Shown here: piece by piece, positions 10,875-48,650 of the stretch
Layout: every line of letters starts with the position of its first letter
Position numbering within the stretch: the stretch's first letter is position 1
Origin: Thermoplasmatota archaeon
Lineage (GTDB): Archaea > Thermoplasmatota > SW-10-69-26 > JACQPN01 > JAIVGT01
DNA: 64,000 nucleotides
Assembly (NCBI GenBank): GCA_035541015.1
Contig: DATLFM010000097.1
Location: forward strand, 719 to 64,718
Reading direction: 5' to 3'
Made by a program: the position numbers and the translations under genes
The notes under the pieces: model-generated
Told to the model about the DNA's origin: nothing
Databases searched by the model: none
The model's input: the letters and a program-made list of their open reading frames with translations, nothing else

Positions 10875-12884
10875 ATGAACGAGACGAAACAGGTCGACGA
10901 GTGGGTCAAGGAGCAGGATTTCTCCACGACGGAGGACATCAAGGTTCCGGACCGGCTCATCGACCAGGTCATCGGCCAGGAGAAGGCCGTCGAGGTGATG
11001 CGGAAGGCCGCGGAGCAGCGGCGCCACGTCATGCTCATCGGCGACCCCGGAACGGGCAAGTCCATGCTCGCCAAGGCCATGAGCGAGCTTCTGCCGCCCG
11101 AGGAACTCGAGGACATCATCGCCTACCCCAATCCCGACGACAATCACCAGCCGCGCATCCGGGTCGTGCCGGCCGGCAAGGGCAAGGAGATCGTCTCCGC
11201 CCAGAAGGCCGAGGCGCAACGCAAGCAGGAGCGCAAGGCCACCATGCAGCTCCTCGTGGTCGTGGCCCTCATCGCGCTTGGCGTCGCCATGTTCCTTGCA
11301 AGCCAGCCGCACGAGCCCATGTTCCTCCTGCTGGGACTCTTTGGCGCGCTCATCCTCTTCATGATCATGCGGCAGATGACGGTTCGCGAGACGTCGCTTG
11401 TCCCCAAGCTCCTCGTGAGCCACACGCCCGGCGAGAAGCCCCCGTTCGTCGACGGCACGGGCAGCCACGCGGGCTCGCTTTTGGGCGACGTGCGCCACGA
11501 CCCCTTCCAGTCGGGCGGCCTCGAGACGCCCGCGCACGACCGCGTCGAGGCCGGGGCCATCCACAAGGCGCACAAGGGCGTGCTCTTCATCGACGAGATC
11601 AACATGCTCCGCATGGAGAGCCAGCAGTCGCTGCTCACCGCCCTCCAGGAGCGGAAGTTCCCGATCCTCGGCCAATCCGAGCGCTCCAGCGGCGCGATGG
11701 TGAAGACGGAGTCCGTGCCGTGCGACTTCGTGCTCGTCGCGGCGGGCAACATGGACGCGCTCAAGGGCCAGGAAGGCAACCCCTTCCACCCGGGCATGCA
11801 CCCGGCGCTCCGCTCGCGCATCCGCGGGTACGGCTACGAAGTCTTCATGAACAGCACGATGGACGATTCCGACGAGAACCGCTGGAAGCTCGTCCGCTTC
11901 GTGGCGCAAGAGGTCAAGAAGGACACGAAGATCCCGCATTTCGACAAGATGGCCGTCGCCGAGATCCTTCGCGACGCCCAGCGGCGCAGCGGCCGGCGCG
12001 GCAAGCTCACGCTTCGCCTGCGCGAGCTTGGCGGCCTCGTGCGCGTGGCCGGGGACGTGGCCATCGAAGCAAAGGCGCCGCTTGTCACGCAGACCCACGT
12101 CGTGAAGGCCAAGATGATCGCGCGCTCGCTTGAGCAGCAGGTCGTCGACCAGATGATCGAGCACCGCCGCGAGTACCGCACGTTCCGCGTGAGCGGCGGC
12201 GCCATCGGCCAGGTGAACGGCCTTGCCGTCTTCATGGGCGGCGAGGTGGGCGAGCCCTCGGGCATCGTCATGCCGATTGCCGCCGAGGTGACGCCCTCCC
12301 AAAGCAAGAGCGAGGGCAAGGTCATCGCGACGGGCAAGCTTGGCGACATCGCCCGCGAAGCGGTCCAGAACGTGGCCGCCGTGATCAAGAAGCACACGGG
12401 CGTCGACGTCACGACGCACGACATCCACATCCAGTTCGTTCTCGCGCACGAGGGCGTCGAGGGCGACTCGGCCTCCATCTCGGTGGCGACGGCCGTCATC
12501 AGCGCGCTCGAGGAGATCGAGGTCGACCAGGGCGCGGCCATGACCGGATCGCTGTCCATCCGCGGCGACGTGCTCCCCGTGGGAGGCGTCACGGCCAAGA
12601 TCGAGGCGGCCGCCGAGGCGGGCCTGAAGAAGGTCATCATCCCAAGGGCAAACCTCCAGGACGTCCTCATCGAGGAGCGCTACCGCGACCGCATCAAGAT
12701 CGTGCCCGTGGAGACGCTCGACGAGGTCCTCCAGGAAGTCCTCATGACAAGCCCCAAGAAGAAGGGCCTCGTGGAGAAGCTCGCCAAGTTCATGCACAAG
12801 ACGAGCACGACGCTTGGAACGGGCGTTCCGGGCGCCGGCGTGCCGGCCGGCGCAAGCGGCGCCACGAAGACGCCCGGCCTCTAG
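10875..12884 (+). CDS. lonB: Archaeal membrane-bound ATP-dependent Lon protease (LonB)
   Basis: 669 aa. It has a Walker A GDPGTGKS, a two-TM insertion inside the AAA+ module (LLVVVALIALGVAMFLA...LFGALILFMIM) and a C-terminal Lon protease domain with the EGDSASISVATAVISAL serine motif. Confidence 0.9.
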   Translation: MNETKQVDEWVKEQDFSTTEDIKVPDRLIDQVIGQEKAVEVMRKAAEQRRHVMLIGDPGTGKSMLAKAMSELLPPEELEDIIAYPNPDDNHQPRIRVVPAGKGKEIVSAQKAEAQRKQERKATMQLLVVVALIALGVAMFLASQPHEPMFLLLGLFGALILFMIMRQMTVRETSLVPKLLVSHTPGEKPPFVDGTGSHAGSLLGDVRHDPFQSGGLETPAHDRVEAGAIHKAHKGVLFIDEINMLRMESQQSLLTALQERKFPILGQSERSSGAMVKTESVPCDFVLVAAGNMDALKGQEGNPFHPGMHPALRSRIRGYGYEVFMNSTMDDSDENRWKLVRFVAQEVKKDTKIPHFDKMAVAEILRDAQRRSGRRGKLTLRLRELGGLVRVAGDVAIEAKAPLVTQTHVVKAKMIARSLEQQVVDQMIEHRREYRTFRVSGGAIGQVNGLAVFMGGEVGEPSGIVMPIAAEVTPSQSKSEGKVIATGKLGDIAREAVQNVAAVIKKHTGVDVTTHDIHIQFVLAHEGVEGDSASISVATAVISALEEIEVDQGAAMTGSLSIRGDVLPVGGVTAKIEAAAEAGLKKVIIPRANLQDVLIEERYRDRIKIVPVETLDEVLQEVLMTSPKKKGLVEKLAKFMHKTSTTLGTGVPGAGVPAGASGATKTPGL

Positions 12885-12957
12885 CGCGGTGCCTTCGTTC
12901 GAAACCTCTTGGATGCGTTTGCGCGAGCGTGCGCACGCACCCGAGCGAAACGGACCG

Positions 12958-12965
12958 TATATAAA
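12958..12965 (+). promoter_or_regulatory. TATA box (TATATAAA) for the NTPase gene
   Basis: An AT-rich octamer in GC-rich context about 35-40 nt upstream of the ATG at 12999. An upstream purine-rich BRE-like stretch is present. Confidence 0.5.
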
Positions 12966-12998
12966 GCCGGCCGTCGTTACGGCGCAACGCCGTCGCCC

Positions 12999-13544
12999 AT
13001 GCTCCAGGATATAAAGATCGGGATCACCGGCCTGCCGCAGGTCGGCAAGACCGCCACGCTTCTCAAGATCGTCGAGAAGCTCGAAGGACGCGACGTCATC
13101 GTGGGCGGCATGGTCACGGAGCCCTTCGTCGAGAACGGCAAGCGCGCCGGATTCAAGATCGTGAACTGGCTCACGAAGGAAGAAGGCGTCCTTGCGCGCG
13201 AGGGGGCGACCGGCGACGTGCGCACGGGCAAGTACGGCGTCGATCTCGACGTCCTCGAGACCGTGGGCGTCACGGCCATCCGACAAGCCATCGCGGAGGC
13301 CGAAGTCATCGTCATCGACGAGGTTGGCAAGATGGAGATGGAAAGCGACACCTTCTGCCAGGCGGTCAAGGACGCGCTCGACACGCCAAAGCCCCTCATC
13401 ATGACGCTCCACAAGAAGTCCCGCAACCCGCTCTTGCAGGACATCCGGCGGCGCGACGACATCCGCATCCTGGAAGTCACGCGGATCAATCGCAACTTGT
13501 TGCCGTACAAGATCGAGAAGCTCCTAGAAGGAGAGAACATCTAG
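12999..13544 (+). CDS. Nucleoside-triphosphatase THEP1-like (MJ1559 family NTPase)
   Basis: ORF 12909..13544. The likely start is the internal ATG at 12999 (MLQDIKIGITGLPQVGKT, Walker A). The motif DEVGKME is present. A canonical TATA box TATATAAAG lies about 40 nt upstream. Confidence 0.65.
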   Translation: MLQDIKIGITGLPQVGKTATLLKIVEKLEGRDVIVGGMVTEPFVENGKRAGFKIVNWLTKEEGVLAREGATGDVRTGKYGVDLDVLETVGVTAIRQAIAEAEVIVIDEVGKMEMESDTFCQAVKDALDTPKPLIMTLHKKSRNPLLQDIRRRDDIRILEVTRINRNLLPYKIEKLLEGENI

Positions 13545-37613: not shown

Positions 37614-38641
37614 CCGTACCGATCGTCGTGCGCAAGTCCCGACGCGCCGGCAAGCGGCCCGATCTTCTGCGCCGAGGCGGCAAGCGCGCTCTTCACGGCG
37701 CCGATGTGGCCGGCCCGGCTTCCCTCGCGCTTGAATTCGGGCTTGGCCTCGAGAAGGAGCGCAAGGGCGGCGGCCACGTACGGCGCGGCTTGGCTCGTGC
37801 CGTCGGCCGTCGCGTACTGCCCGCCGCGCCAGGGCCCGAGGATGCCCACGCCCGGCGCGACGATCTCGGGCTTGCGGTCGGGATTCTGCCGCGCGCCCAC
37901 GAGGCCGCCCACCACGCCGCCGTTGTCGCCCCGCTGGCTGAACGACGCGATGCGAAGGTTCCGGTCCACGGCGCCCACGGCGATCACGTCCTTCACGCTC
38001 GCCGGGCTTGCGACGTCGCCGTTTCCGCCGCCCTCGCGGTTGCCCGCGGCCGCGACGACGAACACGCCCGCGCGCAGCGCGTCGGAGACGGCGTTCTCCG
38101 TTTCCGTCCCAAGGAGGAGGCCCTTGGCGCCGCCCAGGCTCATGAGGATGACGTGCGCGCCTTGCGTCTTGGCCGTCGTGACCGCGCGCGCGACCGTCGT
38201 GTCCGATCCCTCCCCGCCGGCCCGGATGGCCTTGATGACGAGGAGCTCGACGCCCGGCGCGGAGGGCGCAAGCTTCACGCCGCTTAGGATCTCGGCCCAG
38301 AGACCCGTCGCGCCGACGACGAGGCCCGCCACGTGCGTGCCGTGCCCGTTGTCGTCGTACGGCTTGCCCTGCCCGTTCACGAGATCGGCCCATCGGACGG
38401 TGCGGCCCGCAAACGCCGGATGATCGGGATCGATGCCCGTGTCGATGATGGCAAGCCGCACGCCCGCCCCCGTGAGCCCGCGTCCGGCGAGCGTGGAAAG
38501 GCCCGTGGCCTCGCGAGCCCACTCGGTCTGCGCCACGCAGCCGGCAAGCGAGGGGACGAGGAGGAGGGCGGCAAGGGCAAGGCCAAGCGGCTGCGCGCGC
38601 ACGACAACGCGGAAGCGCCCGCGCGGGAAAACGTTTTTCAT
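37568..38641 (-). CDS. Subtilisin-like serine protease (S8), predicted lipoprotein
   Basis: The likely start is MKNVFPRGRFRVVVRAQPLGLALAALLLVPSLAGC, with a lipobox LAGC. An alternative GTG start is at about 38602. S8 motifs IIDTGID, DDNGHGTHVAG and GTSQAAPYVAAALALL are present. Confidence 0.8.
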   Translation of the reverse strand: MKNVFPRGRFRVVVRAQPLGLALAALLLVPSLAGCVAQTEWAREATGLSTLAGRGLTGAGVRLAIIDTGIDPDHPAFAGRTVRWADLVNGQGKPYDDNGHGTHVAGLVVGATGLWAEILSGVKLAPSAPGVELLVIKAIRAGGEGSDTTVARAVTTAKTQGAHVILMSLGGAKGLLLGTETENAVSDALRAGVFVVAAAGNREGGGNGDVASPASVKDVIAVGAVDRNLRIASFSQRGDNGGVVGGLVGARQNPDRKPEIVAPGVGILGPWRGGQYATADGTSQAAPYVAAALALLLEAKPEFKREGSRAGHIGAVKSALAASAQKIGPLAGASGLAHDDRYGYGLLRADRWLDSLR

Positions 38642-39743
38642 GCCACCCCCGGCTGCGGAGCCGATGCCCGGCGCGCTGCTTTTGGCCCACGACCGCTTCG
38701 ACCCGCTGTGGGGGAAGACGGCCGTATGCATCCTCCGCTACAACCCCGGCCGCGCGGTGGCCGTCGTGGACCGCAGCAACGCCGGCCGCGACGCGGGCGA
38801 GGTCGTTGGCCCCGTCGGCCGCGGCGTGCCCGTCGTCGCGTCGGTCGAAGAGGGGCTGCGATTTGGCCCCGACGAGGTCGTGATCGGAATCGCGCCCGTG
38901 GGAGGCGCCCTCCCGGACGCCTGGCGGCCGGACCTCCGCGCGGCGCTCGACAACGGCCTCGGCGTCGTCTCGGGCCTTCACACCTTCCTCGCCGACGACC
39001 CCGAGCTGTCCGCGCTTGCGCAAAAGAGCGGCGCAAGCATCGTGGACGTCCGCCGGCCGCCAGCCGAGAAGCGCATCCTCGACGGCTCGGGGCGCCGGGT
39101 CCGCGCGCCCGTCGTCCTCACGGTCGGCACGGATTGCTCCTCCGGCAAGATGACGACCGCCGTGGAGATCGTGCGCGCCGCCCGCGCGCGGGGCCTTCGG
39201 GCCGCGTTTGCCGCGACGGGGCAGACGGGGATCATGATCGGCGCCGACGCGGGCGTCGCCGTCGACGCCGTCGTCTCCGACTTCGTGGCGGGCGCGACCG
39301 AGCGCCTCGTGCTCGAATGCGCCCGCTCCGACCCCGACCTCATCGTGGTCGAGGGTCAAGGCACGCTCACGCATCCCGCCTACGCGGGCGTCACGGCAAG
39401 CCTTCTGTTCGGGGCCTGCCCCGACCTCCTCGTGCTCTGCCACGACGCGCGACGCAAGGAGATGAAGGGCTTTGGCGCAAAGCTCCGCTCGCCGCGCGAG
39501 GAGATCGCCCTCAACGAGACGCTCCTGTCCGGTTGGACGCGCGGGAAGGCGTGCGCCGTCTCGCTCATGACGCTTGGTCTCTCCGAGCGCGCGGCCAAGG
39601 ACGCCGTCGCCCGCGTGCGCCGCCAGACCCGGCTGCCCACGACCGATCCCGTGCGCTCTGGCCCAAAGCCGCTGCTCGACGCGGTGCTCGCGCGCGCCGG
39701 AAAGATCCCCGGCAAGCGCGCCCTCCGGAGGCTGAAGCGCTGA
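38640..39743 (+). CDS. DUF1611-family protein (Rossmann-like, typically partnered with dipeptide epimerase)
   Basis: The start ATG at 38640 overlaps the opposite-strand S8 start codon. The alternative Met at 38664 gives MPGALLLAHDRFDPLWGKTA. The family assignment rests on overall pattern and on the conserved partner gene downstream. Confidence 0.6.
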   Translation: MPPPAAEPMPGALLLAHDRFDPLWGKTAVCILRYNPGRAVAVVDRSNAGRDAGEVVGPVGRGVPVVASVEEGLRFGPDEVVIGIAPVGGALPDAWRPDLRAALDNGLGVVSGLHTFLADDPELSALAQKSGASIVDVRRPPAEKRILDGSGRRVRAPVVLTVGTDCSSGKMTTAVEIVRAARARGLRAAFAATGQTGIMIGADAGVAVDAVVSDFVAGATERLVLECARSDPDLIVVEGQGTLTHPAYAGVTASLLFGACPDLLVLCHDARRKEMKGFGAKLRSPREEIALNETLLSGWTRGKACAVSLMTLGLSERAAKDAVARVRRQTRLPTTDPVRSGPKPLLDAVLARAGKIPGKRALRRLKR

Positions 39744-40771
39744 AGCTCTCCGTGGGCGTCGTCGACCTTCGGCTCTCCCGCCCGTTTGTCATCAGCGCCG
39801 GCGCCGCCACGACGGAAAGGACGCTCGTCGTGGAGCTCTCGCACGACGGCCTCGTCGGCCTTGGCGAGGCCTCGCCGAGCGCGCGCGTGTGCGGAGAGAC
39901 GCTCGACGACGCGTCGCGCTTCCTCGACGGCGTAGCGGCGCGAATTGCGCGCGGCGAGCTTTCGGACCCCGTCGCGCTTCTCTCCTGGGTCGACAAGCAA
40001 ACGGGCACGCCCGCCGCGCGGTGCGCGGTCGAAACGGCCGTCGCCGACCTTCTGGGCAAGCAGCGGAAGAAGAGCGTGGCGCAGCTTCTCAACCTGCAAC
40101 CGGCGCGGCTTCCCACGAGCGCCACCGTGAGCCTGGGATTGCCCGAGGCCATGGCCAAGCAGTCCGTCGAGTACGTCGAGCGGGGTTTTAGGGTCCTAAA
40201 AGTGAAGGTGGGCGAGGCCGCGCGCGACGTCGAGCGGGTGGCGGCGATCCGCGACGCATGCCCGGAGGCGGCGATCCGTTGCGACGCCAACGGGGGCTGG
40301 AGCGAGGCGGAGGCCGTCCGCGTGACCTCGGCCTTGGAAAAGCTCGAGATCGAGCTTCTGGAGCAGCCGCTTGCGCGCGGCAGCGAGGCGGCGATCCGAA
40401 GGCTTGCGGGCTGGACGGACGTCCCGATCTTCCTCGACGAGAGCGTGCTCTCGTTCGCGGACGCGCAGCAAGCGGTGGCGGACCGCGTGGCCGACGGCAT
40501 CAACGTGAAGCTCATGAAGACCGGCGGCCTGCACGAGGCCCTGCGCATCGCGCGGCACGCCCGCGCGCACGACTGGCCGCTCATGATCGGCTGCATGATC
40601 GAGACGTCCGTTGGCATCACGGCCGCAAGCCATCTTTTGGCCGCCTTCGACCACGCGGACCTCGACGGCGCGTTCCTCACGGCGAACGATCCGTTCGAGG
40701 GGGCGACCCTCCGCGACGGATTTGTCGCGCCACCGCCGGGGCCGGGTCTTGGCGTGCGGCCGAAACCGTGA
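39740..40771 (+). CDS. Enolase-superfamily dipeptide epimerase (L-Ala-D/L-Glu epimerase-like)
   Basis: It contains KVKVG, CDANGGW, LEQP, IFLDES, NVKLMKTGG and the MIGCMIETSVG catalytic-lysine and metal-ligand layout of MR/MLE enzymes. The start is CTG or GTG at 39740-39752 and overlaps the DUF1611 stop. Confidence 0.75.
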   Translation: MKLSVGVVDLRLSRPFVISAGAATTERTLVVELSHDGLVGLGEASPSARVCGETLDDASRFLDGVAARIARGELSDPVALLSWVDKQTGTPAARCAVETAVADLLGKQRKKSVAQLLNLQPARLPTSATVSLGLPEAMAKQSVEYVERGFRVLKVKVGEAARDVERVAAIRDACPEAAIRCDANGGWSEAEAVRVTSALEKLEIELLEQPLARGSEAAIRRLAGWTDVPIFLDESVLSFADAQQAVADRVADGINVKLMKTGGLHEALRIARHARAHDWPLMIGCMIETSVGITAASHLLAAFDHADLDGAFLTANDPFEGATLRDGFVAPPPGPGLGVRPKP

Positions 40772-40835: not shown

Positions 40836-40845
40836 CCTATTAATA
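40836..40845 (+). promoter_or_regulatory. Palindromic TATA box (CTATTAATAG) of the A1AO ATP synthase operon
   Basis: It lies about 34 nt upstream of the atpH ATG (40875), which gives a leaderless or short-leader transcript. Confidence 0.55.
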
Positions 40846-40874
40846 GTGCAACCCGATTCCCCGCCCGAAGTTCC

Positions 40875-41204
40875 ATGGACGCCAAGGTGGAGGCGCTCCG
40901 TCGCGTCAAGCAGGCCGAGGAGGAGGCCCGGCGCATCCGCGAGGAAGCCTCTCGCAACGCCGAGACGATCGTCCGCGAGGCCCAGCTTTCGGCCGCCCGC
41001 GTCCTCGAGGAGGCCCGGACCGCCGCCGACGCCGAGCACCGCACGGGCCTCGCGCGCGCCAAGGACGAGCTTTCCCGCGAGCGCGAAGCGGCCCTCCAAA
41101 AGGGCCGCCGCGAGGCCGACGCCATCCTTGCGCGCCGCAACTCCAAGTCCTTCGAGAAGGCCGCCGAGCTCCTCCTTTCGCGGTTCGAGCAGAGGGTGGC
41201 CTAG
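40875..41204 (+). CDS. atpH: A-type ATP synthase subunit H
   Basis: 109-aa charged coiled-coil protein MDAKVEALRRVKQAEEEARRIREEA..., first gene of the operon. The start is the internal Met of ORF 40611..41204. Confidence 0.75.
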   Translation: MDAKVEALRRVKQAEEEARRIREEASRNAETIVREAQLSAARVLEEARTAADAEHRTGLARAKDELSREREAALQKGRREADAILARRNSKSFEKAAELLLSRFEQRVA

Positions 41205-41207
41205 CGC

Positions 41208-43346
41208 ATGAAACCCGCGCGCATGGCCCGACTCCTCGTCGTCGCGCCGCGCGCGCGCCTTCGCACCGTCGTCGACACGCTCTACGGGCTCGAGCTTGCC
41301 CATCTCGTCGAGCACGTCGAGAGCGACGACCCCGAGTTCTCCGAGTTCAAGCTCGGCCGGCCGCTTCCGGAGGGAAGCGGCGCAAGCGAGCGCCTCGTCA
41401 AGCTGCGCGGCCTCCACCGGCACCTCGGCCTTGCCGCCGAGGAGGCCACGGCCGCGCCGGGCGCGCCGCGCGTCCCCGCGTCCGACATCCGCCGCAAGCT
41501 CGATCAGGCCATCGCGCAGATGGAGCTCGACGTCGCCTCGGCAGCCGAGGGCCGCAACCGCATCCAGCAGGAGCTCTCCGACCTGCAGAAGCGCCGCGAG
41601 CCCCTCGCGCCGCTTGTTCCCCTTTCGCTGTCGCTTGACGACTACCGAGGCTACGAGAGCCTGGCCGTGATCGTCGGCTCCTGCGAAGCCGATCCCCGCA
41701 AGATCGAGGGCGACCTCTCGCTTGCGACCTCCGGCGAGCACGAGATGTTCGAGGCGCCCCCCGTCTACGCGATCTTCGTGCCCCGCCGCCTGCTCGCGCC
41801 CACCCAAGAGGCCCTGCGCGCGCTCGGCTTCAAGGAGCAGGAGCTCCCCGAGGGGCAGGGCAGTCCCGCCGACGAGCTTGCGCGCGTCGAGCGCTTCGAG
41901 GCCGAGCTTAAGGCGAAGCTCGAGCGCGCCGAGGGCGAGCTCGCCCGCCTCCGCGAGCAGCACCGGCAGTTCCTCGTCGCCGCCGAGGAGGACCTCACGA
42001 TCGAGGTCGAGAAGTCCGAGGCGCCGATCTCCTTTGCCACAAGCGAGCACGCCTTCGTGGCCGAAGCGTGGGTCCCCGCCTCCGACGTTGCGAAGGTCCG
42101 CTTGGCGCTCGAGCGGGCCAGCGGCGGCGACGTGCACGTGGACGTGCTCGCCCACGCGGTCGCCCACGCCGACGCTCACCACGGCGGCGCCCACGCCGCG
42201 CCCCAGGCCGAGCCGCCGACGAAGTACGAGAACGCGCGGGCCTTCCGGCCCTTCCAGTTCTTCACCGATCTCGTGAGCACGCCGAAGTACGACGAGATCG
42301 ACCCCACGCCCGTGCTCGCCCTCATCCTGCCGCTGTTCCTTGGCTTCATGATCGGCGACTTCGGGTACGGCATCCTCATGGTCCTCATCGGCGTCCTGCT
42401 CGTGCGCCGCCTGGGCCACCTCCAGGGCGTCCGCGAGCTTGGCATCGCCGTTGCGCTTGCGGGCATCGTGGCCGGCGTGCTGGGCGCCGTCGTGTTCGCC
42501 GAGGCCTTTGGCATCCACTTCTTCATCCCCAACTACGAGTACGAGCACATCAAGCACGTCCTCGAGGACAAGCACGCGGCCATCACCGCCGCCAGCGTGT
42601 GCTCCACGCTCTACCACGAGGGCGCCGTCTCGTGGGGATGCCTCTTGGGCATGGATCTCCACGCCGATCCGATGCTCTCGAAGCTCACGCAGGTCACCGA
42701 CCTTCTCGTGCTCTCGGTCCTCGCGGCCTTCGTCCACATGGGTCTGGGCCTCGTCTTTGGCATGGTCAACGCCTGGGGCCACTCGAAGCGACACGTGCTC
42801 GCCAAGTTCGGCTGGCTTGCGCTCATGATCGGCTTCTTCGTGCAGATCCTCTACATGGCCGGCTACGAGGGCGGCAACCGCGTCGCGCTTGGCGCCTGGA
42901 ACGTGCTGGGCGTGCCGGAGGCCACGATCGCCGTGGCCGGCGTGGGCTTCCACGTTGCGCTTTTGGCCGCGCTTGTTCTCGGCGCGATTCTCCTGGCCGT
43001 GGGCGAAGGGCCCATCACCGTGCTCGAGCTTCCCGCCATGCTCTCGAACCTCCTCTCCTACACGCGTCTTGCGGGCCTTGCCGTCGCCAAGGCGGCCATG
43101 GCCGCGGCCTTCACGAGCCTCACGCTCGTGGCGATGGTCCTCGACGGCACCGATCTCCTGTTCCTCGTGATCGGGCTCGTGCTGTTCGTGATCACGCAGC
43201 TCTTCGTGTTCGTGCTCGGCGTCTTCTCGAGCGGCATCCAGGCGATCCGTCTCAACTACGTCGAGTTCTTCAACAAGTTCTACACGGGCGGAGGCAAGCC
43301 CTTCGCGCCGTTTGGAAAGCGACGAATCCACACGATCGAAACGTAA
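41208..43346 (+). CDS. atpI: A-type ATP synthase subunit I (membrane a-subunit)
   Basis: 712 aa. It has a soluble N-terminal half and a polytopic C-terminal half with conserved Arg-containing helices. Confidence 0.9.
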   Translation: MKPARMARLLVVAPRARLRTVVDTLYGLELAHLVEHVESDDPEFSEFKLGRPLPEGSGASERLVKLRGLHRHLGLAAEEATAAPGAPRVPASDIRRKLDQAIAQMELDVASAAEGRNRIQQELSDLQKRREPLAPLVPLSLSLDDYRGYESLAVIVGSCEADPRKIEGDLSLATSGEHEMFEAPPVYAIFVPRRLLAPTQEALRALGFKEQELPEGQGSPADELARVERFEAELKAKLERAEGELARLREQHRQFLVAAEEDLTIEVEKSEAPISFATSEHAFVAEAWVPASDVAKVRLALERASGGDVHVDVLAHAVAHADAHHGGAHAAPQAEPPTKYENARAFRPFQFFTDLVSTPKYDEIDPTPVLALILPLFLGFMIGDFGYGILMVLIGVLLVRRLGHLQGVRELGIAVALAGIVAGVLGAVVFAEAFGIHFFIPNYEYEHIKHVLEDKHAAITAASVCSTLYHEGAVSWGCLLGMDLHADPMLSKLTQVTDLLVLSVLAAFVHMGLGLVFGMVNAWGHSKRHVLAKFGWLALMIGFFVQILYMAGYEGGNRVALGAWNVLGVPEATIAVAGVGFHVALLAALVLGAILLAVGEGPITVLELPAMLSNLLSYTRLAGLAVAKAAMAAAFTSLTLVAMVLDGTDLLFLVIGLVLFVITQLFVFVLGVFSSGIQAIRLNYVEFFNKFYTGGGKPFAPFGKRRIHTIET

Positions 43347-43360
43347 GGAAAAGGATACCC

Positions 43361-43693
43361 ATGAGCGGCAACAACGTCGTCAAGATCGGGATCGGGATGC
43401 TGGCGGTCCTCGCCCTTGCGGGCACCGCGGCGGCGCAGGAAACCGGATCGGACCGCGGAGCCCTTGCCGAGGGCGCCGGCCTGATGGTCATCGGCGCGGG
43501 CCTTGCCCTTGGCCTTGCCGCCATCGGCACGGGCATCGCCCAGTACGGCATCGGCGCGGCCGTCGTCGGCGCCGTGGCGGAAGACCCGGCGTTCCTTGGT
43601 CGCGGCTTCATCCTGCTCGCCTTCGTCGAGACGATCCTCATCTTCGGTTTCGTCGGCCTCATCCTGCTCTCCGGCAGGATCCCGACGCTCTGA
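43361..43693 (+). CDS. atpK: A-type ATP synthase proteolipid subunit K (c-subunit)
   Basis: 110-aa two-helix-hairpin proteolipid, GAGLALGLAAIGTGIAQYGIGAAVVGAVAEDP...LAFVETILIFGFVGLILL. An RBS-like AGGAAAAGGA lies upstream. Confidence 0.9.
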   Translation: MSGNNVVKIGIGMLAVLALAGTAAAQETGSDRGALAEGAGLMVIGAGLALGLAAIGTGIAQYGIGAAVVGAVAEDPAFLGRGFILLAFVETILIFGFVGLILLSGRIPTL

Positions 43694-43719
43694 AGCGGAA
43701 ACGAACCCCAGGTGGAACC

Positions 43720-44268
43720 ATGGCCCTCGAGAACGTGGTCGACGGGATCCGGGCGCAGGCCCGCAGCGAAGCCGACGCCCAGGCGGCAAAGGCCCGCGCG
43801 GAGGCGGAAGCGCTCCTTGCTGCCGCGCGCGAGAAGGCGGCCAAATTCCGCGAGCAGCGCTCGCGCGAGCTTGCCGACGAGATCGTCCGCGTCTCGCGCC
43901 GCGAGCGGGCGGCCGCCGAGCTCGAATCCCGCCGGCTCAAGCTCGAGGCCGAGAAGGCCCTGCTTGCCGCCCTGCGCGCGGCCGCGGAGACCCGCCTTCG
44001 AGAGCTTCCGCCCGAGGTCCGCGCACGCCACGTGAAGCAGCTTGCCGCGCGCGCGGGCATCCCCGGCGGCCGCCTCGTCGTGTCCGAGAAGGACCGCGCG
44101 GCCGCCGAGAAGCTCGGGGGCCCCGTGACCACGGGCGCCTTCCTCGGCGGCGTCGTCGTGGACGCGCCCGACGGATCCACCCGCGAGGACCTGCGCTACG
44201 AGTCGCTCCTCGACGAGATCTGGCAGGCGAACCTGAAGGACGTCGTGTCGGTGCTGCTGGAGAAGTGA
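43720..44268 (+). CDS. atpE: A-type ATP synthase subunit E
   Basis: 182 aa. It has an Ala/Arg/Glu-rich N-terminal helix and a globular C-terminus. Confidence 0.8.
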   Translation: MALENVVDGIRAQARSEADAQAAKARAEAEALLAAAREKAAKFREQRSRELADEIVRVSRRERAAAELESRRLKLEAEKALLAALRAAAETRLRELPPEVRARHVKQLAARAGIPGGRLVVSEKDRAAAEKLGGPVTTGAFLGGVVVDAPDGSTREDLRYESLLDEIWQANLKDVVSVLLEK

Positions 44269-44269
44269 C

Positions 44270-45340
44270 ATGGCCAAGCTGACGTTGGCGTCGTTGTCCT
44301 CCCGCCTGTTCTCGGGCAACTACCCCTACGTCACGGCGCGCGTCCGCGCCAAGAAGCCAAAGCTCCTCCCGAAGGAGCAATACCAGCGCCTGGCGACGAT
44401 GAGCCCGCCCGAGATCGCGCGCTCGCTGCAGGAAGGCACGTACCGCAAGGAGATCGACGAGCTCGCCCAGCGGTACACGGGCGCCCGGCTCGTGGAGATG
44501 GCCACGCGCCTCAACCTCGCCCGCACCTACACCGAGGTGCGAGGCTTCGCGCGCGGCGAGGTCGAGACGGTCGTGACGCTCATCCTCCAGCGCTACGACG
44601 TCTACAACGTGAAGACGATCCTGCGCGGGAAGTTCGCGAACGTGCCCCCCGAGGAGGTCCAAGACCAGCTCGTCCCCGCCGGCGCGCTGTCGGCCGACGA
44701 CCTTGCGGGCCTGCTTCGGCTGGGCAGCATGGAAGAGGTCGTGGAGCGCCTGCAAGCGACGCCGTACGGGGACATCCTCAAGGAGAGCCTGGCGCGCGGC
44801 GTGCAGAGCCTCACGGACCTCGAAAACGCGCTCGACAAGCGCTACTACGCGCAGCTCCTCCACGCCGTCGAACCCGGAAACGAGCCCAACCGCGCGTTCC
44901 TCAAGTGGGTCCGCTTCGAGATCGACGCGCTCAACCTCAAGACGGCGCTTCGCCTGCGGGCCGACCGCATCGAGGAGCTTGGCGACCTCCACGTCCCGGG
45001 CGGCTCCGAAACGCCGGAGGAGCGCGTCAAGCGCTGGCTTCGCGCAAGCCCCGACGAGCTCCAGAGCGACGTCGCGAGCCTTCCGTTCGGCAAGGGCGCC
45101 CTGGCCGAGAAGCTCCGAGGCTTTGTCGAGCGCGGCGAACTCTCCGGCGTCGTGGCCGCGCTCGACAAGCAGCTCATCCTCTCGGCGCAGAGCTTCAGCC
45201 ACCGCTACCCGCTGTCGGTGCTTCCCGTCGTCGACTACGTGCTTCGAAAGAAGGTCGAGGTGGACAATCTGCGCGTGCTTGCGCTTGGCAAGGCCGCGGG
45301 CCTTCCCGAGGCCACGCTCAAGGAGCTCCTGATCGTATGA
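44270..45340 (+). CDS. atpC: A-type ATP synthase subunit C (d-subunit)
   Basis: 356-aa helical protein starting MAKLTLASLSSRLFSGNYPYVTARVRAKK, which is typical of AhaC. Confidence 0.85.
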   Translation: MAKLTLASLSSRLFSGNYPYVTARVRAKKPKLLPKEQYQRLATMSPPEIARSLQEGTYRKEIDELAQRYTGARLVEMATRLNLARTYTEVRGFARGEVETVVTLILQRYDVYNVKTILRGKFANVPPEEVQDQLVPAGALSADDLAGLLRLGSMEEVVERLQATPYGDILKESLARGVQSLTDLENALDKRYYAQLLHAVEPGNEPNRAFLKWVRFEIDALNLKTALRLRADRIEELGDLHVPGGSETPEERVKRWLRASPDELQSDVASLPFGKGALAEKLRGFVERGELSGVVAALDKQLILSAQSFSHRYPLSVLPVVDYVLRKKVEVDNLRVLALGKAAGLPEATLKELLIV

Positions 45341-45639
45341 AGGAAATCGCCGTGCTGGGTCCCGAAGAGTTCGTCGTGGGCTTCCGCTTGGCGGGCGTGT
45401 CCCGCACGACCACGACGGACGAGGGCGCCTTCGCCGCCGACCTCGAGAAGCAGCTTGCGGCCGGCAACGTCGGGATCCTCGTCGTTCCCGGCGAGTGGGC
45501 GGCCAAGGCCCCCGCGAGCCTGCGCCGCCGGCTCGTCGAGTCGATCGACCCCGTCGTGATCCAGCTTGGCGGCGAGGCGGGAACCGACGACCTGCGCGAG
45601 AAGGTCAAGCGCGCCATCGGCATCGATCTCTACAAATGA
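45337..45639 (+). CDS. atpF: A-type ATP synthase subunit F
   Basis: 100 aa, MKEIAVLGPEEFVVGFRLAGV... There is a 4-bp ATGA overlap with the atpC stop. Confidence 0.85.
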   Translation: MKEIAVLGPEEFVVGFRLAGVSRTTTTDEGAFAADLEKQLAAGNVGILVVPGEWAAKAPASLRRRLVESIDPVVIQLGGEAGTDDLREKVKRAIGIDLYK

Positions 45640-45668
45640 CGGAATTGCAGCTCACCAGGTGAACCACA

Positions 45669-47426
45669 ATGGCAACCGCGCAACTTGCAACGGAGAAGGG
45701 CGTCGTCTACCGCGTGGCCGGTCCGGTCGTCACGGCCTCGGGCCTCCGCTCGCGCATGTACGACGTCGTGTTCGTCGGCAAGGAGGAGCTCATGGGCGAG
45801 GTCATCGAGATCGCCGGCGACAAGACGGTCGTCCAGGTCTACGAGGACACCTCCGGCATCCGCCCCGGCGAGCCCGTGCGCGAGACCGGCCAGCCGCTCG
45901 TGGTCGAGCTTGGCCCCGGACTTCTAACCTCCATCTACGACGGCATCCAGCGCCCGCTTGTCGTCCTCAAGGACAAGATGGGCGACTTCATCAGCCGCGG
46001 CGTGCTCGCGCCCGGCCTCGACCGCGCGAAGAAGTGGGACTTCACGCCCACGGTCAAGCGCGGCGACACGGTGGGCCCCGGCCAGAAGATCGGCACCGTG
46101 CAGGAGACGCCCACGATCCTCCACCACATCATGGTGCCGCCCAACGCCAAAGGCGGCAAGGTGGCCGAGATCAAGTCCGGCTCGTTCACGGTCGAGGACG
46201 TGATTGGCAAGCTCGACGACGGCACGGAGCTTCGCCTCATGCAGAAGTGGCCCGTCCGCCAGTCGCGCCCCGTCAAGGAGAAGCTTCGCCCCGACATCCC
46301 GCTTGTGACGGGCACGCGCATCCTCGACGGCCTGTTCCCCGTCGCCAAGGGCGGCACGGCGGCGATTCCCGGTCCCTTCGGCTCGGGCAAGACGGTCACG
46401 CAGCAGACGCTTGCCAAGTGGTCGGACGCCGAGATCGTCGTCTACATCGGCTGCGGCGAGCGCGGCAACGAGATGACCGAGGTCCTGACCGAGTTCCCCG
46501 AGCTCAAGGACCCCAAGACCGGCGGTCCCCTCATGAACCGCACCGTGCTCATCGCCAACACGAGCAACATGCCCGTCGCGGCGCGCGAGGCGTCCGTGTA
46601 CACGGGCATCGCCATCGCGGAGTACTACCGCGACATGGGCTACGACGTCTCCCTCATGGCCGACTCCACCTCCCGGTGGGCCGAGGCCATGCGCGAGATC
46701 TCCTCGCGCCTCGAGGAGATGCCCGGCGAGGAAGGCTACCCCGCCTACCTCGCGGCCAAGCTCGCCGAGTTCTACGAGCGCGCCGGCCGCGCCGTCACGC
46801 TCTCGGGCGAGACGGGATCCGTCACGGCCATCGGCGCCGTCTCGCCGCCCGGCGGCGACTTCTCCGAGCCCGTCACGCAGAACACGCTTCGCATCGTGAA
46901 GGTCTTCTGGGCCCTTGACGCCAAGCTCGCCCAGCGCCGGCACTTCCCGAGCATCAACTGGCTCAACTCGTACTCCCTCTACCAGGACCTCCTGCAGGAC
47001 TGGTACAGGAAGAACGTGGCCGAGGACTGGAGCCAGATCCGCAACTGGACCATGGACACGCTGCAGACCGAGGCCGAGCTTCAGGACATCGTGCAGCTCG
47101 TGGGCTCGGACGCGCTTCCCGACGAGCAGCAGGTCACGCTCGAGGTCGCGCGCATGCTGCGCGAGATCTTCCTCCAGCAGAACGCCTTCCACCCGATCGA
47201 CACGTTTGCGCCCCTTGCCCGCCAGTACAAGATCCTCACGGCCATCAAGAAGTTCGACACGCTTGCCCGCGCGGCGCTTGCCCGCGGCGTGCCGGTGAAG
47301 GCCATCCAGGGAATCAAGGCCAAGGCCGAACTCTCGAAGGCCCGCTTCGAAGCGAACTTCGACGAGCTGTACGTGAAGATCGTGCAGCAGATGGACCAAG
47401 AGTTCGCCGGGCTCGAGAAGGCGTAG
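45669..47426 (+). CDS. atpA: A-type ATP synthase catalytic subunit A
   Basis: 585 aa. It carries Walker A GPFGSGKT, the non-homologous insert region and the C-terminal helical domain. Confidence 0.95.
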
Positions 47427-47483
47427 GTGCTGGCCGCCCAGACGCGTCGCTCCAGGCTTCCACTTTGGCCCCGGCGGCCGGCG

Positions 47484-47849
47484 CTAGAGTTCCCACGCTT
47501 CGCCGGCCCTCACAAGAGGCTCGTCCTCCCCGCCGCTTGCGACCTGCGGCGCCTCCTCAAGGCCGACGCTCTCGACGAGGGCCTTCAGCGAAGCAAGGTA
47601 GGCGTGGAACGCCTCGATTCCCCGCGGCGTGATCCGAAACCGCACCTCAAACGAAAGGTCCGCCAACACGCGCGAACTCTCCAGAAAGCCCGCTTCCTCC
47701 AGCTTGGCCGCATGGCTCGCGAGGTTTCCGCTCGTTAGCCCAAGTCCCCTCTGAAGGACCACGAACGAAGCCTGACGATTCCGGTACAACGCCGCAAGGA
47801 TGCGCAGACGTTGCGGCTGATGGATCACAGGATCGATCGCTGGGAGCAC
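47484..47849 (-). CDS. Winged-helix transcriptional regulator (ArsR/PadR-like)
   Basis: 121 aa. The segment QRLRILAALYRNRQASFVVLQRGLGLTSGNLASHAAKLEEAGFL is a wHTH. It is convergent with atpA. Confidence 0.55.
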   Translation of the reverse strand: MLPAIDPVIHQPQRLRILAALYRNRQASFVVLQRGLGLTSGNLASHAAKLEEAGFLESSRVLADLSFEVRFRITPRGIEAFHAYLASLKALVESVGLEEAPQVASGGEDEPLVRAGEAWEL

Positions 47850-47852
47850 GCG

Positions 47853-48650
47853 CTACCCCCGCAGCGCCTGCCAGAGGCCGGCCACAATGGGAACGCCGCC
47901 TGTGACGACCGACCCCGCCAGCAACAAGTTCGTAAGCCGAACGAAAACGTCCGACGGATCGCCCGCGATCCCCGGCAAGGCGTACGTGACCCCGAGCGCA
48001 GCCACAAACATGGCCACGCCGATGATCATCGTTACCCTGCGGCCAAGCGCCGTTGCGCCATGCAAATTGAGAAGGCCCAACGCATACCAGGCCAGCCCCA
48101 AACCTGCGAAGATCGCGCCCGGGCTTCGGGCCGGCGGCAGGAGCCAGGCCATGATGCCCACGCCGGCGAGCACGAAAAATGCGAAGAGGCAAACCGCAAG
48201 GGCGCGCTGCCAAAAGACGCGGCCGAGCGGCTGGACAAGCGCCGCGACGCGCCAAAGGACGTGCGTCACCGCCAGGCCCAGCAGAATCCACAGGACCGCA
48301 AGCAGATACATTTCCAGGCCCGGCTCGTACGTCCGCACGATCGTTTGTGTCCCCGACGGAATCGGGGATGAGAGGTCGACAAGCGCGCGGATCGAGGCCT
48401 GCTGGAACATGGCAAGAAAACTCAGCAGGAAGCCGAGCGTGACGATGCCCCAGGCCATCCACGTAAGGCCTTCGGTGCGCCTGCGAAACGGCTCCTCGAA
48501 GCGTGTCGCCGCATCGATGATGTCGATCGCCCGGCCAACCGACAGCGCATTTGGACCTTGCGTCACGTGCATCGCCTCCGGATTCCTCGTTCCCTTCAAA
48601 GAACCGCCGGTTCGGCGGGGCGGTACGCGGGGCGCGCGCAACGGAAGCAA
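47853..48650 (-). CDS. Hypothetical polytopic membrane protein
   Basis: 265-aa ORF with 6-7 TM segments. It sits 3 bp upstream of the regulator gene (operon). Confidence 0.4.
   Translation of the reverse strand: MLPLRAPRVPPRRTGGSLKGTRNPEAMHVTQGPNALSVGRAIDIIDAATRFEEPFRRRTEGLTWMAWGIVTLGFLLSFLAMFQQASIRALVDLSSPIPSGTQTIVRTYEPGLEMYLLAVLWILLGLAVTHVLWRVAALVQPLGRVFWQRALAVCLFAFFVLAGVGIMAWLLPPARSPGAIFAGLGLAWYALGLLNLHGATALGRRVTMIIGVAMFVAALGVTYALPGIAGDPSDVFVRLTNLLLAGSVVTGGVPIVAGLWQALRG

Follow-up and report, generated by a model that had tools for sequence, protein, structure and literature searches.

In the canonical archaeal A-type (A1AO) ATP synthase operon, atpHIKECFABD (e.g., in Methanosarcina, Methanoculleus and Methanomassiliicoccales; loci L002–L020 of our collection), no more than a few tens of nucleotides separate the atpA stop codon from the start of atpB. 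Few gene neighborhoods are as conserved as atpA–atpB, both across archaea and across bacteria that have A/V-type enzymes, and the usual assumption is that this linkage helps to supply equal amounts of both head subunits. In haloarchaea, atpD is less constrained and is detached from atpHIKECFAB, lying 0.2–5.3 kb past atpB (L026–L040), but atpA and atpB stay adjacent. The genes for the catalytic A and non-catalytic B subunits are unlinked in Ignicoccus hospitalis (Igni_1305 and Igni_0679) and in Nanoarchaeum equitans (Neq103 and Neq263), and since the proteins were measured at equivalent abundance, co-transcription of A and B is dispensable for balanced expression (PMC3149612). Here, we describe a 64,000-nt stretch of DNA from a Thermoplasmatota archaeon (hereafter the window; GC content of ∼ 69% throughout), in which the ATP synthase gene cluster ends with atpA and for which atpB and atpD were found on two other contigs. 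The arrangement most probably represents a genuine, lineage-specific fission of the operon into three loci that arose from a recurrent insertion and recombination hotspot at the A|B junction.

The atp gene cluster of the window ends with atpA

The cluster consists of seven plus-strand genes in the order atpH-I-K-E-C-F-A, which span positions 40875–47426. The coordinates of these tightly packed genes hold, and Pfam and NCBIfam models support their identities, as proposed in an initial annotation of the window that was made from the sequence alone.

40837–40846, + strand: palindromic TATA-like box CTATTAATAG, putative promoter of the atpH–A unit
40875–41204, + strand: atpH, peripheral stalk subunit H, 109 aa; best NCBIfam match AhaH (TIGR02926, 29 bits, sub-threshold), weak match to Pfam ATP-synt_B
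41208–43346, + strand: atpI, membrane subunit a/I, 712 aa; PF01496 (E = 1e-30), NF004430 (E = 1e-144)
43361–43693, + strand: atpK, c-ring proteolipid, 110 aa; PF00137 (E = 2e-14, above cut-off)
43720–44268, + strand: atpE, peripheral stalk subunit E, 182 aa; PF01991 (23.5 bits, cut-off 24.2), NF002629 (E = 2e-24, below cut-off)
44270–45340, + strand: atpC, subunit C/d, 356 aa; PF01992 (E = 3e-76), TIGR02923 AhaC (296.8 bits, cut-off 240.5); HVL88198.1
45337–45639, + strand: atpF, 100 aa, start overlapping the atpC stop; PF01990 (E = 4e-12)
45669–47426, + strand: atpA, full-length catalytic subunit A, 585 aa, last gene of the unit; TIGR01043 (987.3 bits, cut-off 972.15); HVL88200.1

The A-type membrane sector is complete, with both subunit I/a and the proteolipid K/c above the Pfam cut-offs, and the stalk subunits C, F, E and H are all encoded (C passes TIGR02923 and F passes PF01990). 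AtpE and AtpH score below the model cut-offs and are assigned by best match, size and conserved position; for AtpH, it is mainly position and size that identify the gene. An open reading frame (ORF) of 109–110 aa occupies the atpH position in L082–L084, L169 and L171 as well. The atpA product contains four Pfam domains (PF16886, PF00006, PF02874 and PF22919), has the insertion domain specific to A/V-type subunits and carries the P-loop (Walker A) motif GPFGSGKT, and homologs cover 100% of its length. The genes are separated by 3 nt (H/I), 14 nt (I/K), 26 nt (K/E), 1 nt (E/C) and 29 nt (F/A). Between atpC and atpF, stop and start codons overlap as ATGA (45337–45340), as had been pointed out initially. 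The GC content at third codon positions (GC3) is 0.88–0.94 in every atp gene.

We searched the whole window by tblastn with atpA, two atpB and two atpD queries and found neither atpB nor atpD in the 40.9 kb upstream or the 16.6 kb downstream of the unit. The absence of both genes, previously noted for the locus, thus extends over all 64 kb, and the canonical contiguous atpHIKECFABD arrangement is replaced by one with B and D on separate contigs.

atpB and atpD are located on two other contigs

The initial annotation had proposed to look for atpB and atpD elsewhere in the assembly, and both are indeed present on other contigs from the same European Nucleotide Archive (ENA) sample, apparently from the same metagenome-assembled genome (MAG). 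The atpA product of the window (HVL88200.1) is encoded on a 69,367-nt contig of the third-party annotation (TPA) MAG ‘Candidatus Thermoplasmatota archaeon’. An intact atpB (HVL87574.1; P0125) is found on a 14,714-nt contig, and its accession number is 626 below that of atpA. An identical AtpB protein is encoded on contig k141_96923 of ENA assembly ERZ27256751 (L165, 13.4 kb, GC 0.70) and on contig Ga0247717_1000626 of the Joint Genome Institute (JGI) (L166, 99.99% identical). In L165, atpB is flanked by a rhodanese gene and a 133-aa ORF on one side and by a 283-aa ORF and a MEDS-domain gene on the other, and there is no other atp gene in the 5.6 kb upstream or the 6.4 kb downstream. The protein is full length and scores 783 bits against NF003235 (cut-off 349). 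It is 87% identical with its counterparts in L171 and L082, 84% in L083 and 82% in L084; the corresponding values for AtpA are 81%, 79%, 78% and 76%. As the two similarity rankings run parallel, they support the assignment of atpB to the same lineage as the atpA of the window.

The atpD gene (HVL88251.1; P0374) lies on a 9,723-nt contig, with an accession number 51 above that of atpA. A variant with 99.3% nucleotide identity (P0256) is present on contig k141_215383 of ERZ27256751 (L168), where it has no atp neighbors and sits between a divergent 121-aa ORF and an NYN-domain gene. AtpD is full length, and HVL88251.1/P0256 scores 315 bits against NF001542 (cut-off 261). None of the ORFs flanking atpB and atpD (133, 283 and 121 aa) matches a Pfam family, and so nothing points to a new subunit or assembly factor. 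From the proximity of the accession numbers, the shared ENA sample, the GC content and the congruent similarities, we infer that the full subunit set of one organism is spread over three contigs.

On the 3′ side of atpB in L165, we found two genes, one for a 137-aa protein and one for a DUF6496 protein, which are orthologous (50% and 75% identity, respectively) to the pair situated between atpB and atpD in L171. In this respect, the atpB locus has kept its ancestral context. We therefore place one break at A|B and the other between the B-proximal genes on one side and atpD on the other.

The two contigs that carry atpD, L167 (JGI) and L168 (ENA), match at 99.3% identity over 1.8 kb, after which all similarity is lost. 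The alignment stops ∼ 20–30 nt upstream of the atpD stop codon; beyond this point, one contig contains the NYN-domain gene and the other a 51-aa ORF followed by a 360-aa ORF on the opposite strand. A strain-level rearrangement may thus have taken place at the 3′ end of atpD as well.

The atpA–atpB junction is disrupted in most genomes of one clade

To place the junction in context, a background set was drawn from Genome Taxonomy Database (GTDB) species genomes in which atpA was found; the best listed match is 72% identical, and this set holds no close relative. Close relatives were gathered from protein matches and their contigs and from a scan of metagenomes with an atpC profile, and the nearest AtpA sequences are 73–81% identical. 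Among the 80 listed GTDB loci, all 78 that have sequence past atpA carry atpB directly after it. Taking GTDB and metagenome loci together, the same holds for 110 of the 112 loci outside the clade of the window, as the initial annotation had stated for most archaea. L117 and L126, which make up the remainder, are truncated contigs in which the atpA match stops near residue 257, close to the contig end; they are probably intein-containing atpA genes cut by the end of the contig and not true exceptions.

In a neighbor-joining tree of AtpA, ten loci form a single clade that adjoins other Thermoplasmatota-type sequences. L085 and L170 are the same organism, and the ten loci therefore correspond to nine distinct genomes. 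Only one of the nine, L082, retains A–B adjacency, and it is nested inside the clade as the sister of L171 and close to the window. The following arrangements were found downstream of atpA:

L082 (JGI, 1.26-Mb contig): atpB immediately; atpD 275 nt later
L171 (JGI): two VapBC/PIN pairs; atpB after 1.5 kb and atpD a further 3.3 kb on
L083 (GCA_016207515.1): HepT–MNT, TPR, MNT–HEPN, PIN/RHH and PIN/VapB genes; atpB after 5.5 kb; atpD at another site of this 184-kb contig
L084 (GCA_054638135.1): 157-aa ORF, aldolase and phosphofructokinase genes; atpB after 3.4 kb
L169 (GCA_052387135.1): HEPN–MNT genes and large genes of unknown type; no atpB in 10 kb
L170 (= L085; GCA_035540375.1): complete type I-E cas operon beginning 244 nt past atpA, followed by a CRISPR array
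L087 (JGI): MazF/PemK toxin gene (12694–13113) and aldo-keto reductase gene
L086 (JGI): gene for a 1141-aa PKD-domain surface protein

The cas operon of L170 comprises cas3, cse1, cse2, cas7, cas5, cas6e, cas1 and cas2 and, together with the array, occupies L170:12014–21770. In the array, the repeat GCGTTCCCCGCTTGCGCGGGGATGATCCG recurs every 61 nt, at least 21 times, up to the end of the fetched locus. The comparison with relatives that had been suggested for the window thus shows an intact junction in L082 only and varied cargo in the other genomes; of the two explanations offered initially, a rearrangement breakpoint after atpA is borne out by the repeated disruption of the atpA 3′ flank in related genomes.

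In the window itself, the junction is occupied by the following features:

47427–47483: spacer of 57 nt, from the atpA stop to the stop codon of a convergent regulator gene, at the site where atpB starts in other archaea
47484–47849, − strand: winged-helix regulator gene (HTH_34/ArsR-like; PF13601, E = 2e-16); the ENA record calls a 92-aa gene
47853–48650, − strand: gene for a hydrophobic protein of 239–265 aa; no Pfam or PADLOC match, GC3 0.79–0.80

The spacing of 57 nt and the convergent orientation of the regulator gene had been described correctly, but it is the 3′ end of this gene, and not its start, that abuts atpA. The two junction genes (47484–48650) have a GC3 of 0.75–0.80 (0.75 for the regulator), compared with 0.88–0.94 for their neighbors, and may represent a recently acquired two-gene module that was placed exactly at the 3′ junction of atpA. 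Core genes for a CN-hydrolase, agmatine deiminase, eIF-6 and ribosomal proteins are found beyond the low-GC3 module. A GC-rich hairpin is predicted in the 57-nt spacer; we give it no weight. For the junction genes of the window and the cargo of L169, PADLOC returned only MNT-like matches and weak matches to a Csa3-like helix–turn–helix protein, and a known defense system is thus not shown for either.

Two relatives carry duplicated fragments of the atpA 3′ end, namely L083 (two fragments) and L087 (one short fragment); none is present in the window, L084, L169, L170 or L171.

L083:12870–13184: 90-codon ORF, 85.5% identical over 297 nt with the 3′ end of the resident atpA
∼ L083:15545–15664: fragment covering atpA residues 546–585
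Within L087:12332–12410: imperfect copy (27 nt) of the final codons of atpA, ∼ 45 nt past its stop codon

In L083, the intact atpA is followed by both fragments, and a toxin–antitoxin (TA) cassette precedes each of them, a pattern that looks like the outcome of serial integration or recombination at one site. The succession of intact gene, cargo and displaced 3′ fragment is a layout that single-crossover or site-specific integration into the 3′ end of a gene would produce.

The opposite flank of the operon shows a different picture. Directly upstream of atpH, three clade members have a pair of genes, one of the DUF1611 and one of the MR_MLE (dipeptide-epimerase-like) type:

Window 38433–40771: DUF1611 and MR_MLE pair
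L082:1927–3983: DUF1611 and MR_MLE pair
L087:3036–5168: DUF1611 and MR_MLE pair

Since this pair is kept in all three, the 5′ flank of the operon is stable and the 3′ flank highly variable.

Each of the three loci has a promoter-like element

The host being an archaeon, we looked for AT-rich boxes and T-runs, and defined an AT-rich cluster as at least seven A/T bases out of eight. The 64 kb of the window contain 23 such clusters, several of which are located 20–35 nt upstream of predicted gene starts in the manner of archaeal TATA boxes; none is found inside 40848–47483. One of the 23 is CTATTAATAG, the palindromic TATA element before the operon that had already been recognized. It is a perfect palindrome that occurs once in the window (0.01 matches expected in shuffled sequences at ≤ 1 mismatch), and analogous boxes precede atpH in L082, L083, L084 and L171. 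With only 28 nt between its end and the atpH ATG, the spacing implies that a 5′ leader of atpH would be very short or absent.

L165 contains just four AT-rich clusters in its 13.4 kb, and one of them, CTTAAATAC (L165:5558–5566), is located upstream of atpB, ending 36 nt from the ATG. In L171 (CATATAAATAC), L083 (ATTATATAC) and L084 (GCTTATAGG), the stand-alone atpB has an equivalent box in front of it. Each atpB ATG is preceded at 7–9 nt by a GAGG or GGAGG motif (only AGG in L083). In L082, where A and B are adjacent, the ribosome-binding-type motif GGAGG is situated inside the last atpA codons, and the atpB ATG comes directly after the atpA stop. The detached atpB genes therefore seem to have kept their original ribosome-binding context.

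A block consisting of CTTAAATCC, 21 nt and the atpD start codon is shared by L167/L168 and L082 (L168:2076–2105; L082:13441–13470), despite differing intergenic sequence and although the AtpD proteins of these loci are only ∼ 73% identical. This suggests a conserved atpD promoter and a leaderless atpD mRNA. The TATA-like elements that atpB and atpD each have ∼ 20–40 nt upstream support separate promoters for B and D, the other option raised by the initial annotation, and both of its options are thus supported together.

Origin of the split and alternative explanations

In the model that we favor, the organism of the window has three ATP synthase loci, atpH-I-K-E-C-F-A, atpB alone and atpD alone, and, given a TATA-type element near the start codon of each, these would be transcribed as three separate units. 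The balance between the A3B3 head and the D shaft would have to be set by promoter and translation strengths instead of co-transcription. The split would have originated when the atpA 3′ end, or the atpA–atpB junction, turned into a recurrent site of insertion and recombination in this clade. Cargo would have been inserted genome by genome, comprising TA pairs, type I-E CRISPR–Cas, glycolytic genes or a surface protein gene, and, in the window, the low-GC3 module of regulator and membrane protein. The atpA 3′ fragments left in two relatives point to recombination within the atpA 3′ end, and the window, with atpB and atpD on other contigs, represents the end state. The genes present, the junction and its recurrence in a second assembly, the contigs of atpB and atpD and the pattern across the clade are observations; promoter activity, independent transcription and the mechanism of recombination are the steps of this model that we infer. 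Homologous recombination anchored in the highly conserved atpA is at least as likely as site-specific integration.

The source of the window is a MAG of short-read contigs, and conserved genes such as atpA and atpB can break assemblies; the contig might thus be chimeric at 47427–47483, with the real atpB and atpD following atpA, a case that the initial annotation had itself raised. However, ENA contig k141_4815 of ERZ27256751 (53,455 nt) has the same junction, with identical gene order through the adjoining 10 kb in both directions and two mismatches to the window in 21,758 nt (99.991% identity). Moreover, atpB is embedded in unrelated sequence, extending 5.6 kb upstream, in both the ENA and JGI assemblies (99.99% identity), atpD is likewise surrounded by unrelated sequence, and the same kind of break recurs in related genomes from different studies. 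With the junction reproduced in a second assembly and atpB and atpD located amid unrelated genes, we exclude a chimeric contig and regard an artefact of assembly or binning as extremely improbable. Just as improbable is a degenerate or altered complex, in which either the atpH–A unit has no need of canonical B and D or a second, different ATPase uses the unlinked B and D. Only one atpA was examined, which leaves some room for this explanation; yet AtpA, AtpB and AtpD are full length and strongly match archaeal models (987, 783 and 315 bits), the P-loop of AtpA is kept, the GC3 of 0.88–0.94 in all atp genes indicates native, well-adapted genes, and there is no second atpA of the same accession block among the matches listed.

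The timing of the split allows for a further alternative, namely a single ancient split in the ancestor of the clade followed by turnover of the cargo, the adjacency in L082 being secondary through deletion of cargo or re-acquisition of the operon. In its favor, nine of the ten loci are split, atpB stands alone in all split genomes behind a TATA-like box and a GAGG/GGAGG motif that are similarly spaced, and a conserved promoter-like box belonging to atpD is present in L082 already. Nevertheless, we consider this scenario unlikely: the L082 junction is canonical and tight, with a Shine–Dalgarno-like GGAGG in the last atpA codons, L082 is placed deep inside the clade beside L171 and the window, the cargo is different in every genome, and the ∼ 85% identity of the remnants in L083 indicates recent and repeated events. 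Repeated independent insertions are favored over one ancient split because the cargo differs from genome to genome and the nested L082 has a canonical tight junction. A bolder version of the hotspot model is possible, and we put it forward tentatively: the atpA 3′ end might be a dedicated landing site for mobile cassettes, with atpA and atpB, owing to their high conservation, serving as homology anchors or as an att-like target and with TA and CRISPR–Cas cargo exchanged between species, so that the traffic of defense islands broke the operon and the cell answered with separate atpB and atpD promoters.

Several points weigh against fission at a hotspot as the favored explanation. A scan of the 57-nt spacer for T-runs did not detect an oligo-T terminator after atpA, and the three promoters and the end of the atpH–A unit are predicted from sequence alone. 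Relaxed tblastn (E up to 1) downstream of atpA found no atpA or atpB remnant at the junction of the window, and the event that broke it can therefore not be reconstructed. No integrase or transposase Pfam family is present in any called cargo gene (L083, L084 and L169–L171) or in the scanned genes of L086 and L087. The neighbor-joining tree is built from a single protein and carries no support values. The assignment of A, B and D to one genome is based on the four lines of evidence given above, short of a closed genome, and related clade members (L085–L087) co-occur in sister JGI samples. Finally, both assemblies with the junction may come from overlapping read sets.

Other unusual atp loci

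Some of the loci outside the clade also deserve mention. In a soil Thermoplasmata-like group (L093, L095, L099, L109, L111, L139, L147, L151, L153, L162 and L164), the atpA match is split by ∼ 1.5–2.5 kb of extra sequence before residue 236–241, and in L120, L132 and L153, the atpB match ends at residue 278 and atpD follows ∼ 1.6 kb later than usual. The extra sequences look like intein-type insertions in both head subunits. L012 (JAYELB010000064.1, a Methanobacteriota MAG) has atpF-atpA-atpB without detectable upstream atpI or atpC and without atpD within 18 kb downstream, and is another non-canonical arrangement. L019 (CAVHHN010000015.1) is labeled Faecalibacterium sp. CAG:74 and carries an archaeal atp operon whose AtpA groups with Methanomethylophilaceae/Methanoplasma loci; it is probably a mis-binned archaeal contig.

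Comparison with known systems

A clade in which A–B linkage is dispensable and that has been invaded repeatedly by TA and CRISPR cargo provides a natural test case for how an essential complex can keep its stoichiometry when its genes no longer form one operon, and the same clade can show how insertion hotspots erode operons. There is also a practical consequence, as pipelines that judge the completeness or type of an ATP synthase from one locus would wrongly score B and D as missing here.

The window and its companion contigs encode the same subunit set as the canonical operon, with the same H-I-K-E-C-F-A order and the same tight or overlapping junctions, and the A, B, C and D proteins are 35–87% identical; the difference is that the unit of the window ends at atpA. 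In haloarchaea, as in L082 and L171, it is atpD that is detached, whereas in the window A|B is broken too. With Ignicoccus and Nanoarchaeum, the window shares A and B genes at distant loci. These organisms, however, belong to other phyla (Thermoproteota and Nanoarchaeota) and have small or streamlined genomes, and according to the locus tags, their other subunits also appear to be dispersed (PMC3149612), whereas seven genes stay compact here and, unlike in those two organisms, the break is linked with an insertion hotspot that is specific to the clade.

Integration hotspots and defense or TA islands flanked by conserved core genes are known from the plasticity of prokaryotic genomes. The atpA 3′ junction resembles them in its variable TA and CRISPR–Cas cargo at one conserved position and in the duplicated fragments of the flanking gene, but differs in that the site lies inside an essential, otherwise nearly invariant operon and in that no integrase or att site was identified. 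In the literature searched, we found no description of a split A-type operon or of an A|B insertion hotspot in Thermoplasmatota. No new molecular machine is revealed. Fission of ATP synthase gene clusters is rare but has precedent, and the locus adds a further lineage in which it is seen; what is added beyond this is that, in one clade, TA and CRISPR cargo has come to land at a junction that hardly varies elsewhere.

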